DNA of 32,000 nucleotides from Akkermansia muciniphila ATCC BAA-835 (lineage in GTDB: Bacteria; Verrucomicrobiota; Verrucomicrobiia; Verrucomicrobiales; Akkermansiaceae). The stretch is taken from contig NC_010655.1 of the NCBI RefSeq assembly GCF_000020225.1, forward strand, positions 1,170,001-1,202,000, in the 5' to 3' direction. The translations under genes were made by a program, and so were the position numbers. Within the stretch, counting starts at the first letter, position 1; each line of letters opens with the position of its first letter. The notes beneath the pieces are model-generated. The model saw nothing but the letters and a program-made list of their open reading frames with translations, was not told the origin of the DNA and did no database searches. Positions 1-7,580 of the stretch are shown here, piece after piece.

Positions 1-697
1 CGCTCTGAGATCTGCCTTCTCCTCTCGAAGGTCGGATTTTTCTGTTGAAAGTATCGCCTGTTTGACTATAACATGTTTTGTTATAACAATCAAACCAAGT
101 ATAAACTACATAACAACAATTTTCTTTACATATATTATTATGATCACATTCAGATGTGAAATTAGGACTTTTAACCGATGCTTTAACATTAATTCCTTTT
201 GTTCCTGCATCCTGAATGATCGGATGTTCCTGTGATCTTTTGCATTCTTTGCAACATTTTGAACATGGATCCCCTGTTTTTATAAACCCCTTTTTTAACC
301 CCAAAGCATCAAACTTATCTTGAGGGCTGTTCCCGAGGAACGCATATAAATTCCACCCCCCTTCTTCAGCAATGGGATCGCGGTTGATCCATCTGCCGTC
401 TTTTGGGTTGTAAAAGCGGTAATTGTAATAGACCAGGGAGGATTCTTCGTCGTGCATCTCGCCGGACCACTGGACGGGCTGGACGAGGCTGCCCGTACTG
501 GTCACGGCCCCATAGGGGGAGTAATCGTAAGCCGCCGCGATCGTTCCCTGTGCGTCGAAGACCTCTGTGACATTCTTGTTGAAGTCTACGCCGTAGCAGT
601 ACAGGGAAGCGCCCTGCACGAGGGCCAGGGGGCGCGTGGCCATCTCTTCCAGAGAATCCCACAGCAGGGTGCCAAGCACGTTACGGTTGTTGATCAT
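1..697 (-). CDS. Orphan Rhs C-terminal cassette, partial (3' end beyond left edge): Rhs core-end fragment fused to a distinct Cys-rich tip domain
   Basis: Not in the ORF track because there is no in-window stop. Hand translation of the minus strand, in the frame opened by TAA at 713-715 with the first ATG at 697-695: [134 protein letters not shown], then [78 protein letters not shown]... The first part parallels the end of the Rhs core of 1299-7157 almost residue for residue. The tip is unrelated to that gene's tip. Confidence 0.75.
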   Translation of the reverse strand, partial: [232 protein letters not shown]

Positions 698-708
698 ATC
701 CTGCGACG
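345..708. repeat. Direct repeat copy 1 (orphan Rhs core-end), homologous to 1891-2254
   Basis: By-eye alignment at a constant offset of 1546 nt (for example gatccatctgccgtcttttgggttgtaaaagcggtaatt at 386 versus gatccacctgccgtctttggggttgtaaaagcggtaatt at 1932). Most positions are identical over about 360 bp. Similarity stops where the AT-rich sequence begins on both sides. Confidence 0.9.
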
Positions 709-7088: not shown

Positions 7089-7580
7089 CAGGTATTCAAG
7101 AGTTGGGAGTAATGAATGAAGCGAGGGGTGGCCGCCCTTTCCTGATCGTTTTATCAATAGTATGATCCGAAGTCGGTGTCGATAGAATTTTATTTGTATG
7201 TTTTTGATTTTTTATAAAAGATGGTCATTATTTTACACGAAAAGATAATATTATAATTCTTACGTTCAGTGCATTCCCTTAATAGACATCAATGTTGTCT
7301 GTTTGTTAGAAAATGTTTCCCTCTCATGCTGAGCCCTTGACAGGATGCCATCCCTTCCGGGCATCAGTCTAATTCCTGTAATCAATGTTTCTTTCTCTCG
7401 AAGAAAGATGGGGGCCGTCGCTGTCGGAAGGGGGCTTGCTTAGGTTTCGTCCGGCATTTCCAAGTACAGTCTCCTGGATTACTGGGAACCTTCCAGTGTA
7501 ACATTTATTTTTTACGCTGCGCGACGATGAGGAAGCAACTGTCTGATATTTTATTCCTGGTTCAAGGAAACCTGATAATG

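Follow-up and report, generated by a model that had tools for sequence, protein, structure and literature searches.

The sdh-dtd island of Akkermansia muciniphila: a probable Rhs polymorphic-toxin locus with a putative membrane-acting tip and a split candidate immunity gene

Background

A long rhs gene lies next to the sdh operon in the 32,000 nucleotides of Akkermansia muciniphila ATCC BAA-835 that were analysed here (NC_010655.1, positions 1,170,001 to 1,202,000; "the window"), and it raises the question whether this locus encodes a working toxin with its own immunity factor and, if so, on what the toxin acts. A. muciniphila is a probiotic in development, and one clade usually dominates a host. 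According to the sections of PMC8920140 and PMC11923206 cited here, Akkermansia strains carry 5–18 copies of Rhs/"WapA" genes each, in clade-specific sets, and Rhs proteins are enriched in the extracellular vesicles of AmII, which inhibit AmI; those of PMC11923206 present Rhs as a suspected basis of clade exclusion with no tested toxin, and state that Rhs-mediated inhibition has no direct evidence so far. The original prediction knew of no functional work in this lineage. Rhs work does exist, as comparative genomics (PMC8920140) and as vesicle proteomics (PMC11923206), but the claim stands insofar as the same sections describe no toxin that was tested. They concern this gene family in this species, and individual tips, immunity genes, orphan cassettes and the sdh-dtd locus are not treated in them.

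Our main reading, to which we assign a probability of roughly 0.8, is that the locus represents the sdh-dtd Rhs polymorphic-toxin island of A. muciniphila, in the form found in the ~2.66-Mb genomes, with a membrane-acting tip (tip A) and a cognate immunity protein with three transmembrane (TM) segments. Tip A and its 119-aa membrane protein make up a concrete pair for experimental tests.

Results and discussion

The Rhs shell and its boundary motif

The main rhs gene (1299-7088, minus strand) encodes 1929 aa from the first ATG, in agreement with the gene of about 1930 codons with a GC-rich YD-repeat core that had been predicted, and its frame extends upstream as far as a TTG at 7157 (1299-7157, minus strand; 1952 aa). 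The exact 1929-aa protein is common to 10 complete A. muciniphila genomes of ~2.66 Mb. The profile searches proposed earlier were run and identified RHS/YD repeats (Pfam RHS_repeat PF05593, 1.2e-25, seven stretches; TIGR01643, 3.7e-18) as well as the Rhs-associated core (TIGR03696, 4e-17, 62.5 bits versus a cut-off of 32.5), while the matches among PDB sequences included the Rhs chains 8H8A, 7Q97 and 8QJC, and also Tse5 and TcC chains. The Rhs-associated core domain (1845-2069, minus strand; aa 1697-1771 of the 1952-aa ORF) comprises the putative autoproteolysis region and the core/tip boundary, and ends in ...SIDYLG. Across the Arg/Asp/Asp autoprotease region the core aligns to Tse5 and TccC3 with the conserved Arg and both Asp residues present, which predicts cleavage. 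The Akkermansia Arg...Asp...Asp spacing is presumably that of YenC2 (13 and 23 residues). Judged from these matches and alignments, the core forms a full-length YD-repeat shell with the conserved Rhs core/autoprotease motif at its end.

The same C-terminal YD-shell and aspartyl-autoprotease region aligns to the TcB/TcC cocoons of Tc toxins, including YenC2 (PDB 4O9X, 4IGL, 6H6E), but the Akkermansia Rhs is a single chain without a TcA/TcB partner, and its target is presumed to be bacterial rather than insect. GC content drops from 0.635 over the core (1896-7088) to 0.289 over tip A (1299-1841), the abrupt switch to AT-rich DNA having been placed at about 1880, and it stays low, as was also foreseen, through the candidate immunity gene (911-1269; 0.237) and the spacer of roughly 200 bp that follows it (730-910; 0.249).

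The N-terminal region offers fewer clues. A beta-sandwich-like region (aa 52-176; 6561-6935, minus strand) was assigned at low confidence from an AF2 model and a weak FlgD_ig match; the model, built from an alignment of 27 sequences, has pLDDT 50–73 over aa 52-176 and 47.6 overall. The ~46 residues ahead of it are non-hydrophobic and modelled at low confidence, and homologues of the N-terminal region were found in Akkermansia only. The FlgD_ig match (E 0.0015) and another to Aida_C2 are weak, sub-threshold Pfam hits and were disregarded as domain assignments, and Foldseek gave only generic jelly-roll or lectin-like matches (TM <0.5), which we do not regard as evidence of fold identity.

Delivery

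The original prediction called the system contact-dependent. No PAAR- or DUF4150-type domain was detected in the whole Rhs protein at E<=0.1 or in its N-terminal 582 aa at E<=1, and a VgrG-type domain is absent from Rhs, as are secretion genes from the window; the neighbouring genes (window scan and the annotation of loci L040 and L042) are sdh, TatD, sulfatase-maturase, ABC ATPase and similar genes. A signal peptide was not found in Rhs either, and its first 400 aa contain no hydrophobic segment (maximum Kyte-Doolittle (KD) value 1.1 over 15 aa). Sec export of the WapA type is not indicated, because there is no N-terminal hydrophobic segment and the ORF cannot be extended past the TTG at 7157. 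With neither PAAR nor VgrG nor signal peptide, "contact-dependent" is therefore unproven and should be read as an assumption. In the sections of PMC11923206 cited here, extracellular vesicles are the only published lead for the export of Rhs in Akkermansia; the same study, the one with proteomic data, found Rhs enrichment in the vesicles of AmII, but not in those of the AmI strain tested.

The orphan cassette and recombination at the sdh-dtd site

Downstream of the AT-rich spacer, an orphan rhs core fragment (296-729, minus strand; ATG at 697) has its own Rhs_assc_core match (TIGR03696, 1.2e-21, 76.9 bits versus the cut-off of 32.5) and the boundary FDALGL, which like the SIDYLG of the main gene is a variant of the PxxxxDPxGL type. 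The spacer contains a sigma-70-like match (836-807, minus strand), although AT-rich DNA is expected to give matches of this kind by chance. It had been proposed that the last ~120 codons of the core recur here on a different, Cys-rich tip, and this is what we find: a direct repeat of 300 nt (339-638 versus 1885-2184) is 88% identical (~390 nt by BLASTN), 104 of 121 residues are identical between orphan and main core, and the tips are unrelated. GC content is 0.555 in the core fragment and 0.342 in the orphan tip, tip B (1-295, minus strand), which is truncated by the window edge and has no Pfam or PDB match. Complete copies of tip B elsewhere have 150 aa with 13 Cys and end in ...TTPPKN; in L040 and L041 the orphan is annotated as a 284-aa gene. 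By these comparisons the orphan consists of ~130 core codons fused to the unrelated tip B, and it looks promoter-less.

The cross-strain alignment suggested with the original prediction was carried out, and the tips with their following genes do vary, with the core and the sdh and dtd flanks fixed. Among strains with identical SdhB, the sdh-dtd site is found in at least six states, i.e. at least five tips and a tip-less form. The main gene carries tip A in L041 and L051, tip X in L043, an Ntox16 tip followed by DUF6714 in L042 and L049, two further tips in L044 and L046, and no tip in L047, L048 and L050. Across all loci, a shared boundary motif ending in [GA]F precedes more than 20 distinct tips. 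In a BLASTN comparison, L041 and L043 align as two collinear blocks with an overlap of 480 nt within the core, and 1382 nt are missing from L041; the arrangement of the window thus equals that of L043 minus its first cassette (1382 nt), by deletion here or insertion there, and tip A is an orphan in L043, but is fused to the full-length rhs in the window. This pattern shows that homologous recombination between repeated core segments remodels the locus between strains, and that every tip has been lost in other strains by recombination with a terminal core remnant. The strains form a natural series in which nothing but the cassette at a single chromosomal site differs.

All elements of the predicted layout (the main rhs, a small gene behind it and the orphan rhs-CT) are thus found, exactly or to within a few bases at the predicted positions, in a Verrucomicrobial gut commensal, namely A. 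muciniphila. Koskiniemi et al. in 2013 and 2014 (refs 44/45 of PMC8920140) reportedly described such loci, with arrays of orphan rhs-CT/rhsI pairs, in Enterobacteria (E. coli and Salmonella Typhimurium). The likeness extends to the GC-rich YD-repeat core with a conserved end motif, to the AT-rich variable tips, each with a small downstream gene, and to orphans that keep a core fragment, so that recombination between main and orphan core puts an orphan tip on the full-length gene; cassette shuffling in Verrucomicrobiota thus works as in Enterobacteria. The differences, besides the phylum, are the boundary motif (D-x-x-G-[LK] in Akkermansia, as in DYLG and DALGL; DPxGL in Enterobacteria), the lack of PAAR/VgrG linkage or nearby T6SS genes at the Akkermansia locus, and its genus-specific N-terminal region.

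Beyond the window, the island holds further core remnants, which are frameshifted and tip-less. Together with the tip-less rhs at the sdh-dtd site of some strains, they would suit a different explanation, in which the island has become a relic in this lineage, decaying or silent: rhs would not be a weapon, the immunity gene would be a pseudogene, and orphan and core remnants would be debris of recombination. The missing enrichment of Rhs in the vesicles of the tested AmI strain, noted above, points the same way. We nevertheless consider a relic unlikely, as the 1929-aa ORF is intact, tip A included, and identical in the 10 complete genomes, and without selection an ORF of 5.8 kb would not remain open for long.

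Tip A

The tip that follows the core has 181 aa (KETNEF...IWSK; 1299-1844 on the minus strand with its stop codon) and is AT-rich, exactly as foreseen, and the statement that neither tip is recognisable also holds, since tips A and B have no match in Pfam, NCBIfam or PDB. Homologues of tip A outside Akkermansia were not found: the word-indexed search returned only matches of at least 80% identity, and exhaustive HMMER against 1.84 billion representatives returned one full-length cluster and fragments only. The sole distant match, P0029, a repetitive Ig-like protein that was hit via seven of its repeats, was dismissed as compositional; a weak sub-threshold Pfam match to DUF5095 was disregarded, and comparison with the Gly-rich tip of L046 found no relation. 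The PDB sequence search gave nothing relevant even though Tse5 was in the library, and the AF2 model from the single sequence (pLDDT 43) is too poor for fold comparison. What distinguishes tip A is a beta-periodic hydrophobic moment (z=4.75 versus shuffles), with helical amphipathicity absent and no hydrophobic segment above the KD threshold of 1.6. Ile, Lys, Leu and Ser predominate in alternating patterns.

Could tip A instead be an enzyme toxin of an unrecognised fold, such as a nuclease, a deaminase or a cell-wall enzyme, with the membrane protein protecting indirectly, e.g. by blocking import? Most characterised Rhs tips are enzymes, according to the cited sections of PMC11923206. Ntox16 is among the other tips at the same site, and a missing family match is uninformative on activity. 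However, tip A shows neither a catalytic motif nor a match to any family, even by exhaustive HMMER, it has only one His and three Cys residues in its alternating sequence, and its partner is an integral membrane protein. Enzyme tips are normally paired with soluble immunity proteins. On balance we find an enzymatic tip A improbable.

We prefer membrane action, which we infer because tip A is strongly beta-amphipathic, lacks any enzyme signature and has a three-TM protein as its constant partner, in parallel to Tse5-CT/Tsi5; the term "membrane-acting" thus reflects composition and analogy. Tsi5 is a two-TM protein of the cytoplasmic membrane that neutralises the pore-forming Tse5-CT in Pseudomonas aeruginosa (PMC9637101). 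The two systems (PMC9637101, PMC10684867) share an Rhs shell with alignable cores, a tip without predicted enzymatic function and a small integral membrane protein as immunity factor, a candidate one in Akkermansia. Tip A and Tse5-CT share no sequence similarity, nor do Tsi5 and the candidate immunity protein, and it is the Akkermansia tip that is beta-amphipathic; also, Tse5 is delivered by VgrG and the T6SS, whereas no such apparatus is seen at the Akkermansia locus. By this analogy the shell would enclose tip A, aspartyl autoproteolysis at DYLG/K would free it, and the freed tip would be delivered to competing Akkermansia, where it might hit the target membrane by pore formation or depolarisation; the three-TM protein would serve as the cognate immunity factor.

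The candidate immunity gene and its poly-A tract

The original prediction described a 100-aa two-TM ORF (911-1213, minus strand), starting 85 nt after the stop codon of tip A. The coordinates, the gap and the two hydrophobic segments (aa 26-51 and 61-91 by KD scan) are correct, but the ORF is not the natural gene unit. Alignment to relatives reveals a family of 117-119 aa with three TM segments, conserved over its full length at 66–99% identity and present also in A. biwaensis, and the corresponding gene in the window (911-1269, minus strand) is split. The 100-aa ORF is its 3' piece, with TM2 and TM3, and a 57-aa ORF (1096-1269, minus strand) is its upstream piece, with TM1; the third hydrophobic segment of the 119-aa long form is the VFVILFLRILVW stretch, as read from the alignment. 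The split is due to a one-base change in a poly-A tract (1164-1171, minus strand), which is A8 on the gene strand here, versus A9 in the in-frame allele; A7 and A10 occur elsewhere. A weak sub-threshold Pfam match of the protein to LapA_dom was disregarded.

Tip A and the membrane gene are constantly linked, in main, orphan and tandem-duplicated contexts and at different chromosomal sites. Loci L001-L008 were retrieved by an exact match to the 100-aa protein and are hence unusable as evidence of ORF conservation; the counts given here derive from scanning with a DNA pattern and from retrievals based on the core or on SdhB. In-frame copies of the gene often lie beside a broken tip A, 12 of 18 in the ATC background (a pattern scan within the gene, no intact ORF required), and in L052 a tip with ~70% identity and frameshifts is followed by an intact 117-aa gene; intact genes are thus kept where the tip has decayed.

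Awkwardly for an active system, it is precisely in the lineage with tip A on the full-length rhs that the immunity gene is out of frame. The A8 allele adds weight to the relic explanation, as does the fact that tip A copies elsewhere are in many cases broken; against it, A8 still leaves the 100-aa ORF with two TM segments, and the exact product of this ORF is encoded on 297 contigs. If the island is an active toxin locus, as we think, self-protection must come from another source than the intact gene, since this is split by the change from A9 to A8. Candidate sources are the 100-aa TM2-TM3 product, slippage back to frame, or a paralogue elsewhere; an intact paralogue in type-strain-like genomes was sought by cluster look-ups, small ORFs being uncalled in the NCBI complete genomes.

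The tract itself could be a functional switch, with phase variation or transcript slippage setting the three-TM immunity on or off, or low from A8. Its length ranges from A7 to A10 within haplotype groups that differ by at most 3 bases over ~1 kb (L060/L063 A9 versus L085/L102 A8; L001/L007/L008 A8 versus L097 A10; L093 A7 versus L099 A8), and all 25 of 25 copies with an alternative background, ATC+A8, are in register at this point. Read in the frame of the 57-aa ORF, the tract forms an A_AAA_AAA heptamer, where a -1 slip yields the exact A9 product. Programmed -1 ribosomal frameshifting was nevertheless rejected, as no stimulatory RNA structure follows (z -0.03); homopolymer miscalls are possible in low-coverage metagenome assemblies, and neutral decay would be just as likely to produce the frameshifts of orphan copies. 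A regulatory role of the tract thus seems to us quite doubtful. Just as speculative is the more far-reaching proposal that tip A and its three-TM partner are a new, Akkermansia-restricted pair of membrane-attacking toxin and immunity protein, with T6SS-free delivery, e.g. by vesicles, and with immunity under a hypermutable poly-A tract. If true, the widely used type-strain lineage would combine an armed toxin with an immunity allele that is "off" or depends on slippage, and kin discrimination and between-strain exclusion in the gut could be shaped by it. The reference lineage thereby also provides a naturally split allele of the candidate immunity gene.

Flanking regions

An Rfam scan of the window revealed one tRNA and nothing else. 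Directly past the sdhB stop, a hairpin of 16 pairs followed by a T run (7583-7618, minus strand; hairpin scan and reading of the sequence) resembles an intrinsic terminator and divides the sdh operon from rhs. Between them lies the AT-rich stretch upstream of rhs that had been noted beside the sdh operon (7160-7330; GC 0.298 versus 0.554 in the rest of the window), a candidate promoter or leader at the left edge of the island. It falls within a continuous, 97.5% identical BLASTN block of L041 and L043 that covers the flank as well as rhs.

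The rhs gene and its duplicated core

The presence of an Rhs island at this site will be no surprise to a specialist, and the expansion of Rhs proteins in A. muciniphila has already been published (PMC8920140). This analysis adds the resolution of a single locus into cassettes (a tip plus the small gene after it), a genus-restricted family of a tip and its putative immunity protein, a natural recombination series at one site, and a hypermutable tract that splits the putative immunity gene in the reference lineage. The split allele and the route of export raise questions that can be put to the test, in an organism that matters for applications.

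The main gene lies on the minus strand (ORF 1299-7157 counted from TTG; 1929 aa from the first ATG at 7088), and 10 complete genomes of ~2.66 Mb, e.g. CP024740 and CP174100, encode exactly this product. The protein matches the profiles Pfam RHS_repeat (1.2e-25), TIGR01643 (3.7e-18) and, at 62.5 bits (cut-off 32.5), TIGR03696 for the Rhs-associated core domain; the orphan core fragment at 296-729 (minus strand) has its own TIGR03696 match (76.9 bits). The core domain of the main protein stops exactly at ...SIDYLG, and the boundary motif, a DPxGL variant, reads D-x-x-G-[LK] across the Akkermansia copies. In the PDB the main protein matches solved Rhs shells (8H8A, 7Q97, 8QJC), Tse5 (8CP6) and TcC/YenC2 chains. 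The residue-level alignment to Tse5 and TccC3 spans the Arg...Asp...Asp region of C-terminal autoproteolysis. The spacing of these residues is 13 and 23, as in YenC2, and the alignment with TccC3 places the predicted cleavage point at DYLGK/ET or DYLG/KET.

All features listed in the original prediction are present in the window, including a second core copy fused to a different tip. The GC content is 0.635 in the core (1896-7088), 0.289 in tip A (the last 181 codons, 1299-1841), 0.24-0.25 in the AT-rich run after it (730-1298), 0.555 in the orphan core fragment (296-729) and 0.342 in the part of tip B inside the window (1-295); the stretch upstream of rhs (7160-7330) has 0.298 versus 0.554 for the rest of the window. 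The two cores share a 300-nt direct repeat (339-638 and 1885-2184, 88% identical; 104 of 121 residues of the repeated segments identical), past which the orphan's frame runs on into the Cys-rich sequence of tip B and leaves the window.

Cassette turnover at the sdh-dtd site

We compared strains using loci fetched via the identical SdhB protein, each with 10 kb of sequence to either side. These loci are conserved in their flanks and core, while the end of the main gene and the genes following it vary by strain; an invariant tip, named in advance as the outcome that would speak against a toxin island, is thus not what this site displays. Tip A ends the main gene in the complete genomes L041 and L051. 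In locus L043 its place is taken by tip X (179 aa), and tips A and B follow as first and second orphan. In L042 and L049 the tip is an Ntox16 one and a DUF6714 gene comes next; L044 has a hydrophobic tip with a 167-aa gene, and L046 a Gly-rich 200-aa tip. L047, L048 and L050 have no tip: the core is joined to the terminal tip-less core remnant and the ORF reads through dtd in antisense, a natural "disarmed" state of Rhs. Taken together, the fetched loci have more than 20 unrelated AT-rich tips, each placed after one common core-end motif ending in [GA]F.

Alignment of L041 with L043 gives two collinear blocks (1-15207 and 14726-18086) with an overlap of ~480 nt of core and offsets differing by 1382 nt; therefore, the arrangement in the window is that of L043 minus the first cassette. 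Homologous recombination between the main core and an orphan core fragment would be expected to produce the arrangement seen, either as a deletion here or as an insertion in L043. Cassette turnover via core recombination is likewise known from enterobacterial Rhs loci, and both architecture and evolution agree with those of classical Rhs loci, as the original prediction had proposed for the architecture.

Tandem copies of the tip A cassette were found on single contigs (L006, at 536-838 and 2084-2386; L082, at 367 and 1916). Protein P0008 (176 aa, from an 89-kb contig) is a chimera in which the first ~68 residues of the putative immunity protein, up to ...LSTM, run into the C-terminal part of tip A, which starts at VAGLSNEK...; it looks as if tandem cassettes had been merged by a deletion at a short common motif (STM/KTM).

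The scan of species-representative genomes returned Akkermansia MAGs and short contigs misbinned into other taxa. Short Akkermansia rhs contigs (L009, L010, L015, L017-L019, L028, L029, L031, L033-L036, L038) have ended up in MAGs assigned to Oscillibacter, Alistipes, Mollicutes, Rikenellaceae, Stoquefichus and other taxa; mosaic GC and repeated cores probably misled the binning. Cassette-carrying contigs are nearly all shorter than 5 kb, and 555 of 568 blocks are below 2 kb.

A putative immunity gene split by a poly-A tract

The 100-aa two-TM ORF of the original prediction (911-1213, minus strand) exists and has two hydrophobic segments, but it is only a fragment of a conserved 119-aa three-TM gene. 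Copies from L028, L031 and L043, retrieved independently of this ORF, carry an additional A in a poly-A tract close to the gene's 5' end. Their A9 allele forms a single 119-aa ORF, with its ATG at window position 1269, 29 nt past the stop codon of tip A, and gains a third hydrophobic segment, VFVILFLRILVW. The A8 tract of the window (1164-1171, minus strand) splits this gene into a 57-aa ORF (1096-1269) and the 100-aa ORF, which begins with 16 residues out of frame relative to the 119-aa form. The conserved form is the long one: 55 clusters, mostly of 114-119 aa, are 66-99% identical from end to end, the N-terminal 35 residues among them, and all come from Akkermansia, A. biwaensis included. 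The NCBI annotation of the complete genomes L040 and L041 has no gene called at the equivalent of 911-1269.

A DNA-pattern scan of metagenome contigs, in which an intact ORF was not required, gave 52 sites. An ATC codon with A8 occurs at 25 sites, all in register at the tract (one ORF is truncated further downstream), and TTA with A9 at nine, in frame. TTA is out of frame with A8 (14 sites), A7 (two) and A10 (one); the last site is an unrelated match, to which register does not apply. In public data the A7, A8, A9 and A10 alleles lie on near-identical haplotypes, the tract varying within groups that differ by at most 3 bases per kb, which therefore indicates either recurrent slippage or a miscalled run in low-coverage assemblies. 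The A8 allele of the window is certainly real, because the exact 100-aa and 57-aa products occur on 297 and 324 contigs, respectively, and the complete genomes with the identical rhs, L040, L041 and L051, have A8 as well. In the 57-aa frame the tract reads as an A_AAA_AAA heptamer, at which a -1 slip would restore the 119-aa protein; no RNA structure supporting programmed frameshifting was found downstream of it.

Wherever it was seen, the membrane gene is linked to tip A: in main and orphan positions, in tandem duplicates and at other chromosomal sites, namely between nadA and nuo (L039) and next to an Fe-dependent repressor (L052). Among 18 ATC-background sites with a scorable tip, 12 have an intact membrane gene beside a broken tip. 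At L052 (4303-6354) a ~70% identical relative of tip A contains frameshifts and the 117-aa gene is intact, as would be expected if a putative immunity gene were retained after decay of the toxin. The rhs gene of L052 is internally deleted, with its N-terminal beta-sandwich region running straight into the final part of the core. The split allele sits in the lineage that has tip A on a full-length rhs, which is the remaining puzzle. In L073 an in-frame membrane gene accompanies a tip A carried by a long rhs ORF, which has at least 1278 aa ahead of the motif. Of the L082 duplicates, one is in frame (ATC background) and the other frameshifted (TTA-A8).

Tip A and its delivery

Tip A, which the original prediction did not recognise, has no match in Pfam, NCBIfam or among PDB sequences. 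A word-indexed search found relatives only in Akkermansia, all at least 80% identical, and among 1.84 billion representatives, scanned exhaustively with HMMER, there was one full-length cluster; the sole distant match was rejected as a spurious repeat protein. The single-sequence AF2 model, all-beta with long hairpins, is unusable (pLDDT 43). The beta-periodic hydrophobic moment is high (z = 4.75 against 1000 shuffles; 28 windows above threshold versus 3 expected); the same analysis found no helical amphipathicity, and no hydrophobic segment exceeds the KD 1.6 threshold. The tip has one His and three Cys, and its partner gene encodes an integral membrane protein. By analogy with Tse5-CT and Tsi5, tip A might attack the membrane, a tentative reading to which we give somewhat less than even odds. 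Tse5-CT, a tip without predicted enzymatic function, forms ion-selective pores, and its immunity protein Tsi5 is a 2-TM protein of the cytoplasmic membrane (PMC9637101).

The "contact-dependent" mode of action originally proposed is not established, since neither a PAAR or VgrG-type domain nor a signal peptide is present in the main Rhs protein, and the remaining genes of the window are housekeeping. The defining features of the T6SS-linked and Sec-linked Rhs subgroups were both looked for and found absent, which excludes the protein from either subgroup. Its N-terminus is predicted to comprise ~46 residues at low model confidence, a beta-sandwich-like region (aa 52-176) and a low-confidence segment (aa 178-284) starting with a Pro/Cys-rich stretch. 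Fold matches for this region are weak and generic, and homologues of the N-terminal 406 aa come from Akkermansia only, fragments being labelled "sugar-binding protein" in some sources. According to PMC11923206, six Rhs proteins are enriched in vesicles of AmII strains that inhibit AmI (A. muciniphila groups named there), vesicles of an AmI strain show no such enrichment, and the authors stress the absence of direct evidence; vesicle enrichment is the one experimental lead on delivery in the genus.

Flanks and remaining parts of the island

The sdh operon and dtd flank the island. Directly after sdhB, a strong terminator-like hairpin (7618-7583, minus strand; 16 pairs, eight of them G-C, then a T run) closes the sdh operon, and ~430 nt of non-coding DNA, including the AT-rich 7160-7330, separate it from rhs. 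In L041 the island can be followed past the left edge of the window. The orphan is completed there to a 284-aa gene, with a tip B of 150 aa and 13 Cys, directly followed by a 149-aa ORF (L041 17250-17699) with a lipoprotein-like N-terminus, MNKILYLVFMLLYPSC. This ORF is a candidate immunity gene for tip B, and the pair is found again in L049; an immunity protein facing the periplasm would suit a tip that is disulfide-rich and acts there. Beyond it lies one degenerate core copy (L041 17759-19307), consisting of a frameshifted remnant (core aa 1489-1573) and a tip-less one (aa 1580-1714), and broken by an AT-rich insert of ~870 bp. The insert contains a 148-aa multi-TM ORF (L041 18062-18508) with no family match, which may be a stranded immunity gene.

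Elsewhere in the window, a 541-aa ORF (30237-31862, minus strand) and a 235-256-aa ORF pair on opposite strands (19904-20674) have no Pfam match at E<=1e-5. A tRNA gene (22135-22208, plus strand) is the sole Rfam match, and a ribosome hibernation factor gene (21193-21786, minus strand) lies near it.
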